Part shown: positions 1 through 37,721 of the stretch, piece by piece | Position numbering within the stretch: position 1 is the first letter of the stretch | Layout of the letters: every line of letters begins with the position of its first letter | From: a virus | Taxonomy: Duplodnaviria > Caudoviricetes | Virus record (IMG/VR): IMGVR_UViG_3300033508_000485 | Span: 1 to 40,625 of that record | Direction: 5' to 3' (one strand) | DNA length: 40,625 nucleotides | The notes under the pieces: generated by a model | The model's input: only the letters and a program-made list of their open reading frames with translations | Told to the model about the DNA's origin: nothing | Database searches by the model: none | Program-made: the position numbers and the translations under genes

Positions 1-530
1 ATTGTTGTTTGAATATATGCTAAAATCATTTGTTTTTGGACAATAGGTAATAAAAGAACTATTTTCAAAAATTGAGGGAGTAAAAATTCGTTTTTTATTT
101 GGAGTTTTGCACAGTTTTCTGTCAAAATAATTCTTTTTTCTGAATTATTTTTTTGTATCTGTGAAACTTTTAATTTTGCTTCGTCCTCGCATAATCCTTT
201 TTGAATCCAAAGTTCATAATTTAATATTGTTAATTTGCTTCCTGTACTTTTACCCAATTTAGCAATAGAAATAGCTTTTTTATGTTCTTCTGTAAAAGGA
301 TTTTTTTTACCAATTTTATCCCGACTATAACATAATTGTGAACAATATTTTCTATTTCGTTCTTTATACTCGACAGCAAAGTGTTTTGAGCAATAGACAC
401 ATGTTATATCTATTGAAATATTTCTATTTTCTTTATTCCTAGCAGAAGTAGAACAAGAATGAGAACAATATTTTTGATCCTTTTTATTTGTAATAAAACT
501 ATTATTACAATATAAACAATCTTTATTCAT
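1..530 (-). CDS. Putative free-standing homing endonuclease (Zn-ribbon + NUMOD3-like), runs off the window edge
   Basis: Not in ORF track. Manual translation from ATG 530 (SD GGAG) is open to base 1: MNKDCLYCNNSF...KYCSHSC...CVYCSKHF...KYCSQLC...FTEEHKKAISIAKLGK. Four Cys pairs plus a NUMOD3-like motif; catalytic domain not visible in the window. Confidence 0.6.
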   Translation of the reverse strand, partial: MNKDCLYCNNSFITNKKDQKYCSHSCSTSARNKENRNISIDITCVYCSKHFAVEYKERNRKYCSQLCYSRDKIGKKNPFTEEHKKAISIAKLGKSTGSKLTILNYELWIQKGLCEDEAKLKVSQIQKNNSEKRIILTENCAKLQIKNEFLLPQFLKIVLLLPIVQKQMILAYIQTT

Positions 531-579: not shown

Positions 580-1068
580 TTACCCGGAGATGTTTTCTAC
601 AAAGAAAATATCATCATTTTCTGTTAAATCTTGAGCAAAAATAAATCCTTTATTTTTAGTCATAATTTGACATTTTTCAGGAATTGTATATTTTTGATCC
701 CCTAGATTAAAAGTAATACAATCATATTGAAAATTAGTTAAATCTGAAGTTGTAACTTCATTATCAAACAACAAAATAAATTCTTTTGCTTTTTTTTCAT
801 TTTGATTAATAACTTTAACGGTGGTATCCTCATGAGCACATTTTCCACTTCCCGGGTCGCCCGAAAATAATATCACCCGGCCCATTGGGAGACCTTTATA
901 CATATCCTTAGAAATAATCCAATTTAGGGCATAGTTACCTGTGGTCATCCAACCAGGAACTTCTGCCATTAGTGACTCATCCATCTGTTCCAGGGGGGAG
1001 TCGGGAAAATCTTTATTAAATTGACTGATAAGATCATCTTTAAGCTTATCCATGTTATCTTTAGCCAT
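580..1068 (-). CDS. recA: RecA/UvsX recombinase N-terminal fragment fused to an N-terminal intein half
   Basis: TGNYALNWIIS...GLPMGRVILFSGDPGSGK (RecA/UvsX Walker A region, 76 aa), then C-AHEDTTV intein-like start, stop after 86 aa. Confidence 0.85.
   Translation of the reverse strand: MAKDNMDKLKDDLISQFNKDFPDSPLEQMDESLMAEVPGWMTTGNYALNWIISKDMYKGLPMGRVILFSGDPGSGKCAHEDTTVKVINQNEKKAKEFILLFDNEVTTSDLTNFQYDCITFNLGDQKYTIPEKCQIMTKNKGFIFAQDLTENDDIFFVENISG
583..840 (-). mobile_element. Putative split intein N-half (IntN)
   Basis: Begins with Cys right after P-loop GK; ends MTKNKGFIFAQDLTENDDI, typical of the end of the N-terminal splicing region; no C-terminal HN before the stop. Confidence 0.7.
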
Positions 1069-2770: not shown

Positions 2771-3457
2771 TCACATGAAACCTTCATCAGGATTATCACT
2801 TACCACTGGGGCAGGTTTAACCACTGGAGCTGGCTTTGCAGCTGGCTTAGGATTATCTTGTGTAGGCGTAGCGATAGTTTCAATTTTAACTGCAGGTTTT
2901 GTTACAACTTCTGCTGGTTTGGTTGTTGGTTCGACAGGCTTTGGAGCTGCTGGCTTAGGATCAACGGTCTTGATAACTACAGGTTCAGGTTTCACATTCA
3001 CCGGATTGGTTTTGTCGGCCGGTTTGACAGGATCTGTTTTAATCTCTGCTTTTGGAGTTGGTATTGGTTCAACCTTTGGAGCTGGTTCTGCCTTTGGAGT
3101 TGGTTTTTCAACAACTGTTTCAGGTTTTGTCTCAATAACCGGTGCCGGTACAACCACTGTTTCAGGTTTTGCCACAACCGGCACAAGTTCTGGTACAACA
3201 ACTTTTGGTTCATCAATAACTCTAACAACTGGTTCAACTTCAGTCTCCTCATTTTCAGTCATACGAGCTGAGAGTGTATAAGATGTCATTAGATTTTCAA
3301 GAGCTGTTTCCTCCTTTAAATGAACAGTTTCTGAGCCAAGCTCAATTGAAACTATACCTCTAGTCAAACCAATAACTTTACATACTACCTCAGAAGTACC
3401 AAATGCCGTCTTCAGTTTATTTGATAAATTATACTTCTCACCAACATTAAGTCTCAT
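2771..3457 (-). CDS. Hypothetical protein with long Pro/Lys/Glu/Thr/Val-rich low-complexity tail
   Basis: About 65-aa globular N-terminus followed by KPETVV, PKAE and KPAPVV repeats. Confidence 0.75.
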   Translation of the reverse strand: MRLNVGEKYNLSNKLKTAFGTSEVVCKVIGLTRGIVSIELGSETVHLKEETALENLMTSYTLSARMTENEETEVEPVVRVIDEPKVVVPELVPVVAKPETVVVPAPVIETKPETVVEKPTPKAEPAPKVEPIPTPKAEIKTDPVKPADKTNPVNVKPEPVVIKTVDPKPAAPKPVEPTTKPAEVVTKPAVKIETIATPTQDNPKPAAKPAPVVKPAPVVSDNPDEGFM

Positions 3458-5843
3458 GTTCTTTCTCCTGTGCTATCCTTGAAAATCCGTCACTCTCTTT
3501 CACAATAGCAATGTTCTTAAAAGATGGATAATCTTTAAAGTTATCTTTATGATCTATTACGAATATTGAGTTATTTCCGCGATCAATCATATCTTGTAAT
3601 ACTTCAAGTACTGAAGATATACCCTTATCATCCAAGTAATTAGACAATACTTCATCCAAGAACATAATATTCATCTTCGATGAAACATTTGTCTTAACCA
3701 AATCATTCAGAGCGAAGAGGATGGCAAGATTAAGTCTTCTCTTCTCACCACCAGAGAACATATCGTAAATTCTTTCCTTACCGTTACTATGGATGACTTC
3801 ATTTAAATCATTATCCAACTGGAGAGATACACTTCCCTCAAAGAAACGGTCCAGGTAATATTTAATCTTCGAATTGAAGTAACCAGTGATGTTGTTGATA
3901 CACCAACTCTTCATACTATTCTTTTTAGAGGAAAGAGAATCTTCCCACCACTTGGTAATAATAAATGTTTGCTTCAATGTCTTCAGCTCTTTACTATACT
4001 CTTTCTTATCCTTAGAGTATTGTTTCGCTTGATTCATCAATGATTCGAGATACTTTTTATCAACGAAGTCTTGAGCTTCCTTTTCTCTAATCTGTTGTTC
4101 CAACTCTGTCTTCTTTTCATCCAAGCGGTTGAGTTCTTCTTCATCCATTGTCTCATCAATCTCTATAGCCTCATAATCTTTTTTGATACCTGAAGCCACA
4201 GTTCGCTGCGCATCAATCTTTAAATTGAGTTTATCTATTGATTTCTGTAGCTCTGTCTTCTTTAGATTCCAGGAGTCAAGATTTTTCTTGTTATCAGCAA
4301 TCTGTATTTTCTTGCCCTTAATTGTTTCTTCAACTCTCTCAGCCAATTCAGTCTGAGCAGCCTTCCAATTTTTAAATTTATCCTCATTAATCTTATTTTC
4401 ACAAATGGGGCAAGAGTCTGGATTTTCATGAGCATGTTCCAATTCTTTTGAAACTCTCTCATACTCCTTCTCCTCTCTTACCAATTCTTTATCGAGTATA
4501 GAAATACTCTTCTCAGCATTTTTGATTAAACCAGCATATTCAGATTGAGTAGATTCTATTGTCGATTTTTCATTCTTCAATGATTCTACTTTATCAGCCT
4601 CATGACGGTATGACACCATCATATCCTCTCTCTTCTTTACAAGACGGGCAACAGCTGCAATCTTCTTTCTCTCGGCATCAATATTTGTCTGATTTATTCT
4701 ATTTAAATTATCTTGTAGAGCTTCTATCTCAAGCTTACTCTTTGTCTTTTTGTTATTACAAGAGTTGACATACTCTTGCATTGCCAACTTGGTATTCTCA
4801 ACCAACTGATCAACACTCTCTTCCTTTAATTTAACTTGCTCGTATTGTTTACGGAGAATCTTTCTCTTCTGTTGTGCAACCCAGTGATACTTTGTAAGGA
4901 TGTTGAGCTGAAGGATGTTTTCAATAATCTCCTTTTTCTTGTTTGAGTCAGCCTGAAGGAAACCAGAAATTTGTTCCTGTGTCATCATGACCGCATTAAC
5001 AAATGACTTGTAGTTGAACTTTATAATTTCGTTAATCTTGAGCTGAGTATCACCTTTGTTAGAGTCTGAGATGAGATTTTCCTCTTCCTTATTATCCTTA
5101 TAGAGGAGGAGTTTATCATAGTGCTTCTTCTGCTTCTTCCATCTCTCAACAATGTAGTTTACACCATCTGCCTCAAACTCAAGCTCAACCATACAATCCT
5201 GGTCAATTTGCTCATTAACAATCTGAGGGATATTTACCTTCTTTGTGACCTGTCCAAAAAGTGCATATGAGATGGCGTCAAAAATTGTTGAGTTGTGACT
5301 CAATATCCCATTTGAAAAATACCTTTTATTGTCTATCACCTGAATATCATAACAGTTTTCTATACGATTTAGTTTTTTAATTGATTTAATTTTTGATGTT
5401 GTCAACTCTTTATTTACAACAATTTCATCATTTTCTTCTAAGTTTTTTAATTTTATCCAACCCCGCTGCGTCATTACACGATGATCTTCTGAGGCAATAA
5501 GCTTATGCCCTGACTCTGTTTCAAGTTCATAAAGTTGCTGTAATTCTGTTTTCCAAAAACATTCAACTTTTTTCCAACCTTCATCAGTCATAACATGTAA
5601 CTCTTCGGGTATATAGAAATTGCCCTCTTCTGGGTTATCAACCAAAGAATCGATATTAATCTCTCCCAATTCTTTGGTTATAATTTTTGTTCCAGCTGCA
5701 ACACACTTTCCTGCTCCATTACTTGAACCAGTAACGTGATTATGTCCTGTGATGAGATACATTCCTGGCTGTGATAGGTCCAGTTTTTGCATATCTGGAC
5801 CAAATGAAAAGAAGTTTTGAATCTTTATGTTTTTAAATACCAT
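3447..5843 (-). CDS. sbcC: gp46/SbcC/Rad50-like recombination ATPase with mini-intein
   Basis: Walker A NGAGK|S split by an intein, coiled coil, CPIC zinc hook, FSGGEKRR signature, MFLDEV Walker B, IDH switch. Confidence 0.95.
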   Translation of the reverse strand: MVFKNIKIQNFFSFGPDMQKLDLSQPGMYLITGHNHVTGSSNGAGKCVAAGTKIITKELGEINIDSLVDNPEEGNFYIPEELHVMTDEGWKKVECFWKTELQQLYELETESGHKLIASEDHRVMTQRGWIKLKNLEENDEIVVNKELTTSKIKSIKKLNRIENCYDIQVIDNKRYFSNGILSHNSTIFDAISYALFGQVTKKVNIPQIVNEQIDQDCMVELEFEADGVNYIVERWKKQKKHYDKLLLYKDNKEEENLISDSNKGDTQLKINEIIKFNYKSFVNAVMMTQEQISGFLQADSNKKKEIIENILQLNILTKYHWVAQQKRKILRKQYEQVKLKEESVDQLVENTKLAMQEYVNSCNNKKTKSKLEIEALQDNLNRINQTNIDAERKKIAAVARLVKKREDMMVSYRHEADKVESLKNEKSTIESTQSEYAGLIKNAEKSISILDKELVREEKEYERVSKELEHAHENPDSCPICENKINEDKFKNWKAAQTELAERVEETIKGKKIQIADNKKNLDSWNLKKTELQKSIDKLNLKIDAQRTVASGIKKDYEAIEIDETMDEEELNRLDEKKTELEQQIREKEAQDFVDKKYLESLMNQAKQYSKDKKEYSKELKTLKQTFIITKWWEDSLSSKKNSMKSWCINNITGYFNSKIKYYLDRFFEGSVSLQLDNDLNEVIHSNGKERIYDMFSGGEKRRLNLAILFALNDLVKTNVSSKMNIMFLDEVLSNYLDDKGISSVLEVLQDMIDRGNNSIFVIDHKDNFKDYPSFKNIAIVKESDGFSRIAQEKEHET
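5292..5705 (-). mobile_element. 138-aa mini-intein (no endonuclease domain)
   Basis: CVAAGTKI start, ASEDHRVMT block B, CYDIQV...NGILSHN end, +1 Ser. Confidence 0.92.
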
Positions 5844-6069
5844 GTTTTCCCTTTATCCATAATTTTTGTGGATATATTCTACCACTATTTGTCTTATTAT
5901 TAGTCCGTGATAGTGGCAGATGAACAATACCACTATTAAATGATAGACACGTTCCGTACTCCTCACTATCTTTCTGCTGAAAAGATGTACACATATTCAT
6001 TTGTCCGATAAAGCAGTTATTGCAAGTCTTACCCAAAAGAACACGTTTAGCTGCTATTACAGTTGTCAT
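5833..6069 (-). CDS. Small Cys-containing hypothetical protein
   Basis: 78 aa, CNNC...C...C; overlaps both neighbours. Confidence 0.55.
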   Translation of the reverse strand: MTTVIAAKRVLLGKTCNNCFIGQMNMCTSFQQKDSEEYGTCLSFNSGIVHLPLSRTNNKTNSGRIYPQKLWIKGKHGI

Positions 6070-6371
6070 ATGGGGTAGCCATATTCCAGCTTCAATTCAT
6101 CGCTAAATCTTTCAGGTCCCCACATAGGTTCAAATGTCAATTCAACCTCAACATTATTAACATTGTTTACTTTCTTTAGTACACGCTCTACATCTTTTAT
6201 TATTTCAGGACCAAGAGGACACTGGGGTGAGGTGAGGGTGAGAAGAACATGTACATCCATATTTTCATCCTGGGTAATATCATAAATTAAACCAATATCA
6301 ACAATGGATGCATTAACTTCAGGATCCTTAACCTCTCTTACAAAATCAATCAATTCGTCATAAGTATACAT
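6066..6371 (-). CDS. sufT: SufT/DUF59 (MIP18/PaaD-like) Fe-S cluster maturation protein
   Basis: VKDPEVNASIVDIGLIYDI...LTLTSPQCPLG...VELTFEPMW matches the DPE-x-T-x-C DUF59 signature. Confidence 0.9.
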   Translation of the reverse strand: MYTYDELIDFVREVKDPEVNASIVDIGLIYDITQDENMDVHVLLTLTSPQCPLGPEIIKDVERVLKKVNNVNNVEVELTFEPMWGPERFSDELKLEYGYPI

Positions 6372-12952: not shown

Positions 12953-13501
12953 TTGGAGTTAATCTTGATTTTAGAACAATTTATCTTTACAGCTGTCTTA
13001 GTCTTCTTTTTGAAAATAGGTATTGACATACTTGGCTATTTTAAAAATGATGCATTCAACAAGGGTAATAAAATATACTTCATTCTCACAAACCTAACGG
13101 AGGCACTATATTGGGTTTTGCTCTATAAGACCATAATTGAGGCTATTAATAAGGATTGGATATTCCTCATAATATTCGGTGTTGGAGCCATCTTGTCAGC
13201 ATTCTTACAAACCCACTTCAAGATGAAATTGGATGATAAAATTCATGGACAGAGAAAGTTTTTTGCTCGTATAACTATTGTTGATGATAACAGGGTAGAT
13301 GAAATAGTTGATGCTCTATCTGAACATAGATTTGAGTTGGCAATAACAAAAAACCAGGTTTATACAACAGGCAGAATGCACACGGTTATAACTGGTTCCT
13401 TAGAAGATAGGAAGAGAATGAATGAGTTGAAGGATGTATTAAGAAATAAAACTGGCTTCCATGTTGTTATTATGAGAGCCGAAGATATATTTATGTTTTA
13501 A
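12953..13501 (+). CDS. Membrane protein, DUF5698/DUF2179 (UPF0316)-like
   Basis: Three hydrophobic segments (KIGIDILG...KGNK...EALYW) plus a soluble C-terminal domain; TTG start. Confidence 0.55.
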   Translation: MELILILEQFIFTAVLVFFLKIGIDILGYFKNDAFNKGNKIYFILTNLTEALYWVLLYKTIIEAINKDWIFLIIFGVGAILSAFLQTHFKMKLDDKIHGQRKFFARITIVDDNRVDEIVDALSEHRFELAITKNQVYTTGRMHTVITGSLEDRKRMNELKDVLRNKTGFHVVIMRAEDIFMF

Positions 13502-14898
13502 CCGACAGAACCTTCCATTTCCAATTCAATAAGGCGGTTTAGTTCAACTGCATATTCCATAGGAAGTTGTTTAACCAGAGGGTCGATAAAACCATTGACA
13601 ATCATCATACTAGCCTCTGCTTCATCTATACCACGGCTCATCAAATATAGTAACTGGTCCTCGCTAATTTTTGAAACTGAAGCTTCATGTTCCATACTGG
13701 CATCGTCTGATTGTATGTCCATAACTGGATAAGTATTTGTTTTTGATTCTGGGTCCAGGAGAAGGGCATCACACTCAACCTTAGAGCGGATATTTCTCAA
13801 ACCAGCGGTTGCCTTAATCATTCCTCTATAGGAGGATATACCACCAGCCCTTGATATTGATTTGGCGGTAACAACACTTGATGTATCATCTGCAAAGTGC
13901 ATAATCTTTGTTCCTGTATCTTGCTCCTGTCCTTTGTTTGCAAAGGCAATGGACATAACTTCACCATGAGCACCCTTACCCATAAGGAAGATGGCTGGGT
14001 ATTTCATTGTTACCTTTGAGCCAATATTACCATCAACCCACTCAACAGTTGCTCTCTCATAAGCAAACGCTCTCTTTGTAACAAGATTATACATGTTGTT
14101 TGACCAGTTTTGGATGGTTGAGTACCTAACTCTAGAACCTGGAAGTGCAACAATTTCGACAACGGCTGTGTGTAAACTATCCTTTGTGAAGACCGGCGCC
14201 GTGCATCCTTCAATGTAGTGGACAAATGCCCCTTCATCAACAACTATAAGTGTCCTTTCAAATTGACCAAAACTTTTAGTATTAACGCGGAAGTAAGCCT
14301 GGAGTGGGATGTCGACATGTACTCCTTTAGGGATGTAGATGAATGAACCACCAGACCAAACAGCTGTATTGAGCGCAGCAAACTTGTTATCTGTATGTGG
14401 TATAACGGTTCCAAAATATTGCTTGATAATATCTGGATGATTGATAATAGCATCTTCTGGTGAGGAGAAGATGACGCCCTTGTCGGTTAATTCTTTCTGT
14501 AGGTTATGATAAACCATTTCACTATCATACTGTGCACCAACACCAGCTAAGAATTTCTTCTCAGCTTCTGGGATGCCAAGTTTATCATATGTATTTTTAA
14601 TATCTTCAGGAACATCATCCCACGAAGTTGCATTTTCAGTTGATGCAGAAGCATAATAATAAATGTCATTGAAATCTACACTATCAAGATTTGCACCCCA
14701 CACTGGCATGGGCATTTTATAAAAAGTTTCCAAGGCTTTAAGTCTATAAGCCAACATCCAAGAAGGTTCATTCTTTGTGGCACTTATTTGTCTTACAGTG
14801 TTTTCACTTAAACCTTTTTCAGATTTTATGAGTGATTTTTCTGGAGTAGAAAAACCATATTTATAACCATCACTAAATCCATCCAATTCTTTTGACAT
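13498..14898 (-). CDS. sufB: Fe-S cluster assembly scaffold SufB
   Basis: GVGAQYDSE, DNKFAALNTAVWSGGSF, GQFERTLI, YIEGCTAP, YSTIQNWS, TMKYP, ECDALL, EHEASVSKI, EMEGSVG; likely start 14898 (SD AAGGGG). Confidence 0.97.
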   Translation of the reverse strand: MSKELDGFSDGYKYGFSTPEKSLIKSEKGLSENTVRQISATKNEPSWMLAYRLKALETFYKMPMPVWGANLDSVDFNDIYYYASASTENATSWDDVPEDIKNTYDKLGIPEAEKKFLAGVGAQYDSEMVYHNLQKELTDKGVIFSSPEDAIINHPDIIKQYFGTVIPHTDNKFAALNTAVWSGGSFIYIPKGVHVDIPLQAYFRVNTKSFGQFERTLIVVDEGAFVHYIEGCTAPVFTKDSLHTAVVEIVALPGSRVRYSTIQNWSNNMYNLVTKRAFAYERATVEWVDGNIGSKVTMKYPAIFLMGKGAHGEVMSIAFANKGQEQDTGTKIMHFADDTSSVVTAKSISRAGGISSYRGMIKATAGLRNIRSKVECDALLLDPESKTNTYPVMDIQSDDASMEHEASVSKISEDQLLYLMSRGIDEAEASMMIVNGFIDPLVKQLPMEYAVELNRLIELEMEGSVG

Positions 14899-14946
14899 AG
14901 TTACCCCCTTATACATTACTGTATATGTAGACTATATAACTATGCT

Positions 14947-31238: not shown

Positions 31239-32216
31239 TTAAATGTAATTAGAATAATCCTTTACATCCAACAAAAATAAAAATTCCTTATTTATTAAAG
31301 CTGCATACTCTTGTGCAGCTTTATTTTTAGCGTCTATCTCTCCTGACTCTAGAGCCTCATAATAATACTGATGTGTTGCTTTTATTTCAATAATAAAACC
31401 ATTTGTTTCAAAATCACAATGATACACATGCTCTTTTTCGTTTAATAAGTATTTGAGTGTTGGCCCGTCAAATATCTTTATATCTTTTTCCTCACACGTC
31501 TGTATAAATCTTAACTCATCTTTAGATTGGTAGTGTATTTTATCACCAAATTTTGTATAATATATTTTTATACCTAATCCAGATTTTATTTTAATCTGTT
31601 GTTTTCTAAACAACTCTGGAACCTGAGCAGGATGTTTAGCACCGTATTTTTTAAATAATGAATCTCCTTGTTTATCTCTTACGCTTTTTAAATCCATTAC
31701 ATGATTTACACCATATCTTTCTTGAACAGTTTTTCTTCTTCTATCTACTACCTTTTTATTGTATTCTTCATCTTTTAATTTAGCTTGATACTTCTCATGA
31801 ATTGTTTCTTTTACTTCTGGTATTTGAAAAGCATTATTAACACCATACTTCTTCTGCATCTTCTCTTCCTTCCATTTCTGGTTTGACAATAAACATTCTA
31901 CTCCATATTTTTCCTTCATTGTTTGCTTCAACTTATTCTTACTTATCTCAGAATACATTGAGTTTGTCACACCATACTTGTCCATACAACTACTTTCTAA
32001 TTTACATCTTTCACATAAAATTTTTTCTGGATTAAAATTTTCATAAAATATAATATGTTCTTTATTGCAGGATGAACAACTAAATTTTATTTTAGTTTTA
32101 TATTTGTTAAATCTAATATTATTATAATAGTGGTTAAAATATCCTTTTCTTGGTTCTACATTTTTATATAATTCATGATTATAATCTATCCATTCATTAT
32201 TTATTTCTATTTTCAT
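31239..32216 (-). CDS. Homing-endonuclease-like protein (KYGV repeats + PD-(D/E)xK domain)
   Basis: CxxC pair, five (K/R)YG(V/A) repeats, YQSKDE...HVYHCDF...IIEIK. Confidence 0.65.
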   Translation of the reverse strand: MKIEINNEWIDYNHELYKNVEPRKGYFNHYYNNIRFNKYKTKIKFSCSSCNKEHIIFYENFNPEKILCERCKLESSCMDKYGVTNSMYSEISKNKLKQTMKEKYGVECLLSNQKWKEEKMQKKYGVNNAFQIPEVKETIHEKYQAKLKDEEYNKKVVDRRRKTVQERYGVNHVMDLKSVRDKQGDSLFKKYGAKHPAQVPELFRKQQIKIKSGLGIKIYYTKFGDKIHYQSKDELRFIQTCEEKDIKIFDGPTLKYLLNEKEHVYHCDFETNGFIIEIKATHQYYYEALESGEIDAKNKAAQEYAALINKEFLFLLDVKDYSNYI

Positions 32217-35732: not shown

Positions 35733-35906
35733 CTATTTTTTTAAAAACTTTATGACATCCTCAGCTGTATATTTTAATTCACTAATCATATATGAAACTT
35801 CATTCCTTGTACGTCCATGTCCCTCAAGGTCTTTAATCCTTGCTATATGTTCGTTGAATATTGAATTTACTTCTGATATTATTAAATCTATATCTTTACA
35901 GTCCAT
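35733..35906 (-). CDS. Small hypothetical protein (57 aa)
   Basis: Below cutoff; fills the gap between mgsA and the holin-like gene. Confidence 0.5.
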   Translation of the reverse strand: MDCKDIDLIISEVNSIFNEHIARIKDLEGHGRTRNEVSYMISELKYTAEDVIKFLKK

Positions 35907-35908
35907 GA

Positions 35909-36307
35909 TTATACCAATAGTGGAGATGTAATAATCATATCTGCTGTAGCTCTATTCAGGGCGAGTGGTACATTCTTGTTGACACAAGCTCTTTCAAGAG
36001 CATGAATGTCGGCTTGATGAGGATGGACATCCATAGGATCTATAAAGAATATAACAGCATCAATATTACCCTTCAATATTTCAACAGATAAAATAAGGTC
36101 TCCTCCAAGGGGCCCTGAAGCAAATTCATGCGGTTCCAATACATCTACTGTAAGACCACATCCTTCATTAATCATTTTTGCAGTTGTAGCAGTTCCTACT
36201 AACTTAAATTGAGACAACTTCTCTCTATTGTTGGAATAGTTTATCCAAGAGAGAATGCTTGTTTTTTTGCCATCGTGAGCTATTAGAGCGATTGTCCTGT
36301 TTTTCAT
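35909..36307 (-). CDS. mgsA: Methylglyoxal synthase
   Basis: IALIAHDGKK, GTATT, SGPLGGD, FFIDP...PHQADI.AL.RAC...NVPLA.NRATAD; start placed at ATG 36307 (AAGATAA-N4-ATG). Confidence 0.92.
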   Translation of the reverse strand: MKNRTIALIAHDGKKTSILSWINYSNNREKLSQFKLVGTATTAKMINEGCGLTVDVLEPHEFASGPLGGDLILSVEILKGNIDAVIFFIDPMDVHPHQADIHALERACVNKNVPLALNRATADMIITSPLLV

Positions 36308-36345
36308 ACCCTTATCTTGCATATTTATAGATGTAGGAGTAATAC

Positions 36346-36540
36346 ATGTATAAATTTTATTTAAATGATCAGCAGATTATTAAATTTGAAAAATGGAAGA
36401 AAACTCTACCAAAAACTCCGCCAACAGCTATTGGTGGAGCATATACCTTCTCATTCATACCAACAAGCATTGGTATCTCTACATGGGTTAGGTATTATAA
36501 TGGTGAAGAATTGGATTTAACAGAATATGAGAGCTGGTAA
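36346..36540 (+). CDS. Small phage hypothetical protein
   Basis: AIGGAYTFSFIPTSIG...LDLTEYESW; SD AGGAG. Confidence 0.7.
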   Translation: MYKFYLNDQQIIKFEKWKKTLPKTPPTAIGGAYTFSFIPTSIGISTWVRYYNGEELDLTEYESW

Positions 36541-36552
36541 TAGGAGGAGTAT

Positions 36553-37264
36553 ATGCAAATAAATAACTATGAAGAATTTCTTAAAAAAGGTCATCTGAAG
36601 GTATTGGGTATAGATGAGAATGGTTAGCTTCGGCTAATCATATAGGAATAAAATATCAAGTAAAGGTACTCTTGCCGGTCCATTGGTTATTACAGGTGTT
36701 GTCTTCAAGGACGGATTTGATGATGAAGTAAAGAAACAAATTAAGGATAGTAAGAAGCTATCAGAGAAGAAGAGAAATGAGTTGTACAACTATCTCCTCA
36801 AAAATACCTATCATTCGGTAAAAATTAAACATGCTGATAGAATAGACCAAATTGGTATTACTGGTTGTTGGACTGAAGCTGTCAACGAAATTTATAAAGA
36901 ATTATCTGGTAAATTTGATATTGCTCTTCTCGATGGCAATAAAGACCCCGTTGAGAGACCAAACTTTCATACCCTCATTAATGCTGATAATTATGTCAAA
37001 GAGGTGGGTGCAGCCTCCATCATTGGTAAGGTTGTACATGATAAGTTTATGTATGAGTATACCAAGAAATGGCCAGAATATTTGTTTGAACAGCACAAAG
37101 GTTATGGAACTCAACTACATCGTGATTTAATCAAAGAGTATGGTAGATGTCCCATCCATAGGAAGAGTTTTAAGGTTAAAGGTTTGGATGATGATCCTTA
37201 TACCCAACGTCTTAAGGAAGAGGCTCGTGTTAGGGATAGGATGAAGAAGTTACACTCAGATTAA
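36553..37264 (+). CDS. rnhB: Ribonuclease HII, interrupted by a 37-nt coding gap (36625-36661)
   Basis: Part 1 (SD AGGAGG, ATG 36553): ...KVLGIDENG*; part 2 in +1 frame: KGTLAGPLV...IKDSKKLS..KR...LDG...AD...AASIIGKV..D...HKGYGT..H...G.CPIHRKSF. Confidence 0.9.
36620..36667 (+). other. Candidate translational bypass (ribosome hopping) element
   Basis: GGT-TAG inside a 9-bp stem ATGGTTAGC-TTCG-GCTAATCAT; landing candidates AGT 36659-36661 or GGT 36665-36667. Confidence 0.7.
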
Positions 37265-37506
37265 TGTCTTCTAGATCTGAAGATTAAATTGATGATTTGT
37301 GGGTAGAAGATAGGATCTAAATCTTCTAATTCAAATATCCTGTTTTTGAATGCTGGGTCAAAGAAGAGATGATCATTTTGTTCTCTCCACCAATACTCAT
37401 GATTCATATCATCATATTTGAAGAATGTACAATGAGTATCACTGTTAAAGAGTTTAATAAATCTTATTTCCTGTGTTGGATAGATTTGGATAAATATTTT
37501 ATTCAT
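37261..37506 (-). CDS. Small hypothetical protein, IxxxF-tail family
   Basis: YPQIINLIF. Confidence 0.6.
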   Translation of the reverse strand: MNKIFIQIYPTQEIRFIKLFNSDTHCTFFKYDDMNHEYWWREQNDHLFFDPAFKNRIFELEDLDPIFYPQIINLIFRSRRH

Positions 37507-37721
37507 ATTTTACTAAACATAAAAGTTATTGCCTTTCTATATTCTTCTGCATATAGCCTTTGATACCCTTCTAGTGTTGATAATGTGTTTATATCTTTAA
37601 AACTTCCGCTATATACACTTCAACTTGGTTTTAGAGTTGTAAAATAATGATATCCATCTTCCAACTGAACAATCATTCTAAATATTTTTCCATTTTCATA
37701 TTTGATCAATGTATTTACCAT
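37503..37721 (-). pseudogene. Paralog of 37715-37945 with in-frame TGA at codon 34
   Basis: MVNTLIKYENGKIFRMIVQLEDGYHYFTTLKPS*SVYSG...EEYRKAITFMFSKI; overlaps both neighbours. Confidence 0.65.

Follow-up and report, generated by a model that had tools for sequence, protein, structure and literature searches.

Gene 60 of phage T4 is the textbook single case of long programmed ribosomal bypassing in bacteria. Its 50-nt gap (AF158101, 2803-2852) interrupts a topoisomerase II gene from GGA to GGA, with the Gly take-off codon and a UAG in the 5' arm of a UUCG hairpin, an AU-rich 3' spacer holding a Shine-Dalgarno (SD)-like run 6 nt from the landing codon, and an insertion point at an invariant Gly that follows an acidic motif for metal binding. 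The mechanistic papers describe folding of a hairpin in the A site, an EF-G-driven start of sliding and re-zipping (PMC7026636, PMC11194080), and a nascent-peptide signal acting 25-30 residues from the P site (PMC5009743). According to a preprint, ribosomes facing a spoiled T4 landing codon divide between a GGU 6 nt further on (40%) and a GGG back in the hairpin (60%), resumption occurs at a low level without good pairing, and the SD effect is stronger at weak sites (bioRxiv 10.1101/2024.12.09.627546).

In MobA elements, such a cassette and a homing endonuclease form one mobile unit, whose cassette may persist after the endonuclease has been exchanged for another or has disappeared. The available sections of the preprint by Manning and Atkins report dozens of cassettes, exclusively in Topo2L and with same-tRNA codon pairs, from a search limited to Topo2L; the gaps span 20-50 nt, the SD of MGS2 lies 12 nt from landing, the 5' stem-loop and the 3' barrier are poorly conserved, and RNase H has 0 mentions in these sections (bioRxiv 10.1101/2022.08.31.505936).

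The byps of Magnusiomyces capitatus mitochondria, as described in two papers and in the same preprint, are short mobile inserts of 27-55 nt found in many genes, and they have a take-off hairpin, an AU-rich 3' part and several imperfect landing codons, like the inserts described here (PMC5009743, PMC7026636). However, they act on yeast mitochondrial ribosomes with relaxed decoding, place an unused sense codon in the A site and occur in many copies per genome, whereas our case concerns bacterial ribosomes, UAG and one copy per phage. The bypass that Streptomyces phage Hau3 has in its terminase gene is likewise short and outside the topoisomerase genes, and its junction peptide was shown in E. 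coli, but as described its gap is far shorter and lies at a UUA codon, which is rare; its signals are 5' of take-off, and it has no UAG-in-UUCG hairpin (PMC10732093). The literature searched, with subscription papers mostly outside it, contains no report of a gene 60-type cassette in an RNase H, a phosphoesterase or a glycosyltransferase.

We analysed a stretch of 40,625 nt of phage DNA (IMG/VR record IMGVR_UViG_3300033508_000485), here called the window. Its RNase HII gene (rnhB) is divided into two open reading frames, and the interruption falls inside the RNase HII active-site motif of a giant phage. The features are the following:

36542..36547, + strand: Shine-Dalgarno AGGAGG, 5 nt before the ORF1 ATG (from the sequence)
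36553..36627, + strand: ORF1, the first 24 RNase HII codons plus UAG (translation, alignment to intact relatives)
36591..36617, + strand: weak predicted stem region (z +1.32, not significant)
36613-36618, + strand: catalytic D-E in strand 1 of RNase HII, within ORF1 (alignment)
36620..36641, + strand: take-off stem-loop, 9 bp of which one is G-U, closed by a C(UUCG)G loop (fold)
36622..36624, + strand: GGU, predicted to serve for take-off; it encodes the G that opens the G-[RK]-G motif (role by analogy with gene 60)
36625..36627, + strand: UAG stop, the first codon of the insert (sequence)
36625..36661, + strand: 37-nt coding gap (intact relatives P0002-P0005, P0121, P0123)
36632..36634, + strand: GGC within the stem-loop, in the +1 frame and with UAA next to it; ribosomes may land back here unproductively (by likeness to T4 GGG 9-11)
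36644..36647, + strand: AGGA, SD-like, 11 nt before the predicted landing codon (sequence)
36659..36661, + strand: AGU, the predicted landing codon, whose first base does not match tRNA-Gly GCC (it ends the insert)
36662..37264, + strand: ORF2, the remaining RNase HII, 200 codons in the +1 frame, starting with AAA (no indels or stops)
36665..36667, + strand: GGU encoding the other Gly of the motif; a competing, matched place to land, use of which would delete K-G (sequence)

The preliminary description of the locus had named the SD, the 24-codon ORF, GGT, TAG, the hairpin, AGGA, AGT and the second GGT, and all its coordinates hold. ORF1 ends GAT GAG AAT GGT followed by TAG (...GIDENG-UAG). ORF2 matches the RNase_HII domain (Pfam ID PF01351) from profile position 8 with an E value of 1e-25 and scores above the cut-off for NCBIfam ribonuclease HII. 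The hallmarks of the enzyme, among them the DEDD carboxylates and the Tyr that reads the junction, are divided between the two frames, with D-E in ORF1 and DSK, DGN, AD and HKGYGT in ORF2. Readthrough is ruled out as a means of joining them by further frame-0 stops in the gap (at nt 19, 25 and 37), and a single plain +1 shift by a stop in the +1 frame at nt 11, inside the hairpin; take-off from the Asn codon is ruled out by stops together with missing landing triplets. In the resumed frame, no ATG, GTG or TTG is met until 7 codons after the resume codon; 3 codons upstream of the resume codon there is an ATA.

The closest full-length intact relatives, at 76-78% identity, read GIDENGKGPLAGP or DENGRG(T/P)LAG at this position. 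The relatives thus read DENG-K/R-G, so that the insert has exactly 37 nt, lies between G and K and ends in AGT, although its boundaries can be slid by 2 nt over a repeated GT. The clean 37-nt insert expected from an alignment with related phage rnhB genes was therefore found, the comparison being one of proteins against empty alleles. The motif was measurable in 117 of the 125 RNase HII proteins fetched, and in 117/117 six residues separate DE from AG[P]. None of 15 candidates in IMG/VR was a relative of the window rnhB with DNA (the best of the 80 matches kept had 38% identity), and a metagenome scan gave, among the matches listed, only bacterial-type genes at 38-48%; 155 of these 160 listed loci have an unbroken motif, the other 5 being short or edge loci. 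Five protein calls that lack the N-terminus (P0122, P0124, P0008, P0249 and P0251) may represent additional split alleles or else genes cut by the end of a contig.

The take-off hairpin, taken as a 22-mer, has a predicted energy of -9.6 kcal/mol (z -5.57; 0/200 shuffles as good), and in its 71-nt context it is not exceptional (z only -1.32). In its outer 5 bp, bases of the insert pair with coding bases of the host gene. It agrees in 21 of 22 nt with the hairpin of a topoisomerase II cassette (L205), and the window holds no other copy within 1 mismatch. Likewise, a generic scan for stops in hairpins returned the rnhB site as its sole match in the window, as it did in a 388-kb relative, G003. 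However, the hairpin core is a common terminator: none of 6 matches in bacterial genomes splits a gene, an identical 22-mer occurs at a bacterial intergenic site (L285), and gene-splitting cassettes make up 12 of 179 unique viral hairpin matches in IMG/VR. The hairpin alone is therefore not diagnostic, since most matches are not gene-splitting.

Beyond the hairpin, the window insert shares with the T4 gap the Gly take-off codon and UAG in the 5' arm, the AU-rich 3' spacer with an SD-like run (82% AU, against 66% AT in the whole window), and the position at an invariant Gly preceded by acidic residues of a metal-binding motif. It differs in its host gene, its length of 37 nt, its +1 frame and its predicted path from GGU to AGU. 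Its AGGA lies 11 nt from the landing codon, where T4 has 6 nt and most topoisomerase cassettes 5-7 nt, and in this it resembles the MGS2 exception. The preliminary description had likened the start of the insert to that of the T4 gap; past the hairpin the likeness is no better than chance, 4174 of 5000 shuffles scoring as high for the spacer, and for the whole insert it is modest (53/5000). The flanking stems are weakly predicted (5' stem-loop z +1.32, 3' forward barrier z -0.30). The T4 peptide signal cannot be present, since the leader has 24 codons (11-15 in the shortest cassettes); a nascent-peptide stimulator at the T4 distance was not found, and a KKYK-type signal at that distance is impossible in a 24-codon ORF1. 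The N-terminal F-L..H-L-K shared by the window and the second split RNase HII described below was considered as a signal carried by the element and rejected: 411/5000 shuffles score as high, which is not significant, and 3 of 121 unrelated N-termini score equal or higher. The yield of bypassing without the T4 peptide signal may be low.

A sequencing run from another study bears on whether the insert is real and maintained. A 151-nt contig of run X2 spans 36627-36777 without gaps and with 6 differences; it starts past the take-off codon and carries 35 of the 37 insert nt joined to ORF2. Since the contig covers this region, the insert is not an assembly slip, and the preliminary description's call for confirmation by reads is answered by this contig for 36627-36661, the take-off codon lying outside the coverage. 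An assembly artefact might have been suspected, as the window's own protein call was seen on one contig only, but X2 refutes it for the 3' junction (the 5' junction lies outside its contig) and a second phage has the same design, which makes such an artefact practically negligible as an explanation.

Of the insert differences in X2, 36657 C>T lies in the spacer and 36639 C>T in the 3' arm, where the new base still pairs with G36622 as G-U. The T at 36639 could also pair with an AGU take-off codon, a codon beyond the X2 coverage. Over 36662-36777, 4/4 coding differences are synonymous, an outcome with a probability of about 0.002-0.006 under neutrality; by one of them the matched GGT at 36665-67 becomes GGA, and AGU is unchanged. 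Divergence is as high in the insert (2/35) as in the coding sequence (4/116), which fits inheritance since the strains split. Among all differences listed, 12/12 are synonymous in X2 and 12/15 in X3, of which 8/8 of X2 and the 12/15 of X3 come from other pieces and are not linked to the insert; run X1 matched 169 nt of ORF2 exactly, and X1 and X3 lie outside the insert. To judge from these comparisons, the insert looks maintained and ORF2, free of indels and stops, looks to be under purifying selection.

The same data weigh on the reading that a homing-endonuclease shield or terminator-like hairpin killed a dispensable rnhB, leaving a gene that is dead or nearly so and still undecayed. The phage host has its own RNase HII, the hairpin core is frequent as a terminator, the T4 helper signals are missing and the insertion in the second phage is recent, all of which would suit it. 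However, no U-tract of an intrinsic terminator follows the stem on either strand, and strains that differ at 2/35 insert positions while ORF2 differs silently at 4/4 point to selection after insertion. We consider the death of the gene unlikely.

The second split RNase HII (L423) is in the related phage G003 and is broken at the same glycine by a 36-nt insert. It reads ...LGLDEVG(GGU)-UAG-CC-UUCG-GG-CUA, followed by an A-rich spacer with GAGAG, AGU and R-G-S-L-A-G-P; the stem does not extend past 6 bp, SD-like GAG runs lie 10 and 12 nt before AGU, and the gap is in frame 0, with in-frame stops at nt 1, 13 and 28. The codon homologous to GGU 36665 is GGA. An intact allele 98% identical to L423 exists (P0246), and the insertion is therefore recent. 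A 295-aa ORF with PF24308 and a PHROG homing endonuclease match overlaps the 5' end of L423, so that the locus shares the upstream endonuclease layout of MobA elements, with an endonuclease of a different family.

The RNase HII proteins of the window and L423 are 40% identical. In a tree of 36 downstream halves, each split gene nests among intact alleles, and a joint clade of the two is rejected (p-AU 4.6e-101, 36 rows). The tree thus rejects one origin, and the same codon was therefore invaded twice by cassettes of different sequence; we infer from this that RNase HII received a cassette at least twice. Both inserts end in AGU, the chance of a spacer-like triplet xGU or xGC being 0.037 for each. 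A distant ancestor of the element may be shared by both cassettes, in which case the two AGUs would not be fully independent. A targeted scan for D-E-x-G-UAG-C gave no third RNase HII case, with one of its 2 matches real; the other (L448) was a chance match on a non-coding strand.

It is quite probable that some bypassing takes place at the window rnhB. As to its course, our analysis leans, with rather less confidence, towards a T4 gene 60-type bypass that lands on the near-cognate AGU and gives full-length RNase HII with D-E-N-G-K-G intact. The ribosome would pause when GGU occupies its P site and UAG its A site, where the top of the hairpin would fold and bar the release factor, and EF-G would pseudo-translocate the ribosome off GGU. 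The hairpin would re-zip behind the ribosome and drive it forward until anti-SD pairing with AGGA holds it close to AGU; there the anticodon would pair through two of its three bases, and decoding would go on from AAA. Some ribosomes would be lost to termination or drop-off, or would resume at GGU 36665, and the by-products would be short chains or proteins lacking K-G; the two sinks seen with T4 are present here, and by-products are therefore expected. The yield would probably be well under that of T4.

The preliminary description had named both AGU and the matched GGU 36665-67 as landing sites, and the evidence favours AGU. Mainly landing on GGU, over a 43-nt gap, would leave out K-G and give little or altered activity. 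It would have the advantage of a perfect match: tRNA-Gly GCC pairs with AGU at two positions and with the GGU six bases further on at three, T4 mutants use a GGU 6 nt on, and the published cassettes are matched. However, six residues lie between DE and AG[P] after AGU landing and four after GGU landing, so that only AGU restores the G-K-G loop and the spacing seen in 117/117 proteins. In T. maritima RNase H2, D18/E19 are catalytic and G-R-G reads the substrate 2'-OH (PMC3025331), a loop that GGU landing would break. The GGU is GGA in both X2 and L423, and in the window as in L423 the insert closes with AGU exactly where the homologous junction falls, contrary to the same-tRNA landing rule. Landing mainly on GGU therefore appears improbable, and the AGU product would be the one under selection; the AGGA tether would be within reach of AGU, not of GGU. 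The predicted junction peptide is VLGIDENGK for AGU and VLGIDENGTLAGPLVITGVVFK for GGU landing. The window has no tRNA gene; in G003, 59 tRNAs were called, and those for Gly have the ordinary anticodons GCC and UCC.

The odd AGU would also be explained if the insert were removed from the RNA, by a nuclease and ligase or by RNA polymerase skipping the hairpin, as sliding the boundaries by 2 nt makes a G + GU Gly codon, in L423 too. This is highly unlikely: an Rfam search of 35800-37600 gave 0 matches at E<=1, a self-splicing intron would have to be longer than this insert, the predicted fold does not bring the two junctions together, and the homologous T4 cassettes are described as unspliced. 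A split enzyme is equally improbable; here the peptide would be released at UAG, ORF2 would start at AUA 36653 behind AGGA, and the chains would assemble. The AGGA lies 5 nt before this in-frame ATA, an initiation-like spacing, and the MobA preprint describes split phage enzymes (bioRxiv 10.1101/2022.08.31.505936), but L423 ORF2 has no start for 78 codons and no ATA, ATT or CTG near the junction, the phosphoesterase and GT9 cassettes lack a start before the resume codon except for an ATT in one (L350), and UAG in a hairpin and the terminal AGU would go unexplained.

The bypass reading would extend to other genes. The search for the cassette in further split genes, which the preliminary description had suggested, found 13 cassettes of the form GGN-UAG-C(C)UUCG(G)G-CUA in IMG/VR: 4 in topoisomerases, 7 in phosphoesterases, 1 in a GT9-like glycosyltransferase and the second RNase HII. 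A pattern drawn from T4 and the window gave 2 matches, both in topoisomerase II broken after DxDG. Among the loci of the hairpin scans, cassettes are at least 1 of the 120 listed, 3/50 and 9/82; four loci that passed the cassette filter (L189, L198, L243 and L264) are left out of the counts. The earlier claim of a bypass cassette in a new gene family is supported by the near-identical L205 hairpin and by L423; the L205 and L283 records contain no RNase HII, and homology of their spacers to that of the window is not significant (719/3000 and 1893/3000 shuffles).

The four topoisomerase cassettes, which may be among the metagenomic cases of Manning and Atkins, have gaps of 47-51 nt. The 7 phosphoesterases are broken after DxH[FL]G, six by 22 nt from GGU to GGU and L350 by 26 nt from GGU to GGA, a third-position mismatch; the glycosyltransferase is broken after GAFG by 21 nt from GGU to GGC. 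The motifs hit are thus DxDG, DExG, DxHxG and GAxG-D. Each of the 13 gaps restores the motif of its family at the exact spacing: the motif is present in 98 of 120 phosphoesterase homologs, where DxH and I-I are always five residues apart, the remaining 22 being calls truncated past it, and 16/16 GT9 homologs among the matches listed read G-A-x-G then D. In all 13 cassette-bearing genes other than the window rnhB the downstream frame is open and the triplet for landing, placed precisely at the junction, is Gly-like, and 4 of the 7 phosphoesterase loci keep the cassette without an endonuclease; both speak against the reading of an insert that killed its gene.

Across 11 cassettes, 96 of 99 stem cells are paired, a figure inflated by search patterns that required the inner stem and mostly a Gly codon; 3 pairs have two-sided changes (0/500 shuffles), which follow the third base of the take-off codon. 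A scan with the first two take-off bases free gave 20 matches, and 9/9 gene-splitting ones have GGU. The six 22-nt cassettes differ by 0-2 bases, and the sequences downstream have dS 0.8-3.6 and dN/dS 0.07-0.17 (14 of 15 pairs, one being saturated), low values that may come from recent homing into diverged alleles as well as from long selection. One cassette copy was found in each of 5 records searched, and no non-topoisomerase cassette in cultured phages among the records listed (8 of 8; 40 of 63).

In 3 of the 7 phosphoesterase loci, the ORF directly upstream is endonuclease-like and contains NUMOD3; these three ORFs are 43-71% identical to each other. The idea of a mobile element aimed at catalytic motifs thus stands as regards the four motif types and the endonucleases upstream of L423 and of these three loci, but not as regards the window copy. 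Here, no endonuclease was found adjoining rnhB, unlike the gene 60 arrangement, and the upstream ORF of 64 aa has no endonuclease assignment. The cassette would have arrived with a homing endonuclease whose target it disrupts, the endonuclease being lost here later, as in many topoisomerase cases. As its sequence presents it, the window locus is one that would work like gene 60 but is not a MobA element. Its host gene is RNase HII and not the large subunit of topoisomerase II with CTE/NTE tails, and the new cassettes as a group differ from MobA in lying in three other protein families, in making no split into two genes, in ORF1 lengths of 11-24 codons, and in first-position (AGU, 2 cases) and third-position (L350) mismatches.

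What is new here would be gene 60-type cassettes in three non-topoisomerase families and, in RNase HII, a mismatched landing codon. It is likely that ribosomes hop over the whole family of such inserts. With confidence a little above even, we propose further that the gene 60 hop is a portable module of 21-51 nt, used by unrelated homing endonucleases at conserved glycine motifs and working without the T4 peptide signal, and that the RNase HII branch kept a mismatched AGU landing through two acquisitions, favouring an SD tether 10-11 nt upstream over codon match. If this is true, hop cassettes suggest a fourth way for homing endonucleases to occupy active-site motifs, beside introns, inteins and split genes.

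The family also provides natural variants that separate the gene 60 signals: their gaps measure 21-37 nt and fall in each of the three frames, their leaders have 11-24 codons, and mismatched landing codons occur among them. These variants bear on whether an A-site hairpin suffices without a nascent peptide, and on what decides the landing site, be it position (through the SD tether and re-zipping) or the match between codons. For annotation, such split genes are called N-truncated with their catalytic residues lost, and the 22 of 120 phosphoesterase homologs truncated at this point, as judged from protein calls, are of this appearance.

The window is part of a large myovirus-like phage with a tail sheath and a T4-type tube, and 13 of its 58 ORFs of at least 80 aa match G003, at 39-74%. 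It also encodes an intein-bearing SbcC-like gene, SufB and several endonuclease-like ORFs.

In phage phosphoesterases (phrog_547), the cassette breaks the gene after DxH[FL]G at seven loci of the IMG/VR pattern scans, being 22 nt long in L345, L375, L379, L391, L410, and L411 and 26 nt long in L350. The take-off codons of two of them lie as follows.

L375 1218-1220 (-), take-off codon of a phosphoesterase cassette
L350 1201-1203 (+), take-off codon of a phosphoesterase cassette

These cassettes represent the minimal form, with an upstream leader of just 11 to 14 codons, and the landing GGU of the 22-nt cassettes sits within the stem, paired at the base of its 13 bp. For assaying bypass in its minimal form, they are the most suitable loci.

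A glycosyltransferase and topoisomerase II are also interrupted.

L373 1201-1224 (+), 21-nt in-frame cassette in a GT9-like glycosyltransferase
L205 1501-1552, 49-nt topoisomerase II cassette
L283 2503-2552, 47-nt topoisomerase II cassette
L311 1201-1251, 48-nt topoisomerase II cassette
L365 1167-1220 (-), 51-nt topoisomerase II cassette

The GT9-like gene is broken after GAFG (GGU to GGC), with no endonuclease upstream. The four topoisomerase II loci may or may not belong to the metagenomic cases of the preprint by Manning and Atkins (bioRxiv 10.1101/2022.08.31.505936).

The related phage G003 contributes two features.

L423 1184-1222 and 1230-2117 (-), near 88976 of G003:C1, second RNase HII gene that is split, overlapped by an endonuclease-like ORF
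L464 864-935 (-), predicted tRNA with anticodon CUA (ARAGORN, among 59 tRNA calls)

The overlapping ORF belongs to PF24308 and shares 35% identity with the window ORF 31239-32216. The predicted tRNA could suppress amber codons, and the cassette of this phage begins with UAG.

A further candidate passing the filter, on the reverse strand of L198 (near 994), combines a 7-codon ORF and a hairpin with a GGG take-off; GGA follows 23 nt on, inside an open frame of 292 codons. Additional cassettes may be hidden behind N-truncated calls in the RNase HII and phosphoesterase families (proteins P0122, P0124, P0008, P0249, and P0251, and 22 of 120 phosphoesterase matches).

The window itself carries intein-associated and host-like genes.

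580-1068 (-), UvsX-like recombinase N-terminus (phrog_97)
3-530 (-), endonuclease-like ORF
3447-5843 (-), SbcC/gp46-like gene
13498-14916 (-), SufB, profile match above cut-off
6066-6371 (-), SufT/DUF59-like protein, match below cut-off
35909-36322 (-), methylglyoxal-synthase-like domain

The ORF of the recombinase N-terminus runs through an intein-like stretch to a stop, and the endonuclease-like ORF comes next; by eye, the arrangement resembles a split intein in a gene that has been fractured. The SbcC/gp46-like gene holds a mini-intein (PF14890) at its Walker A motif; the last three features are the host-like genes of this phage DNA.
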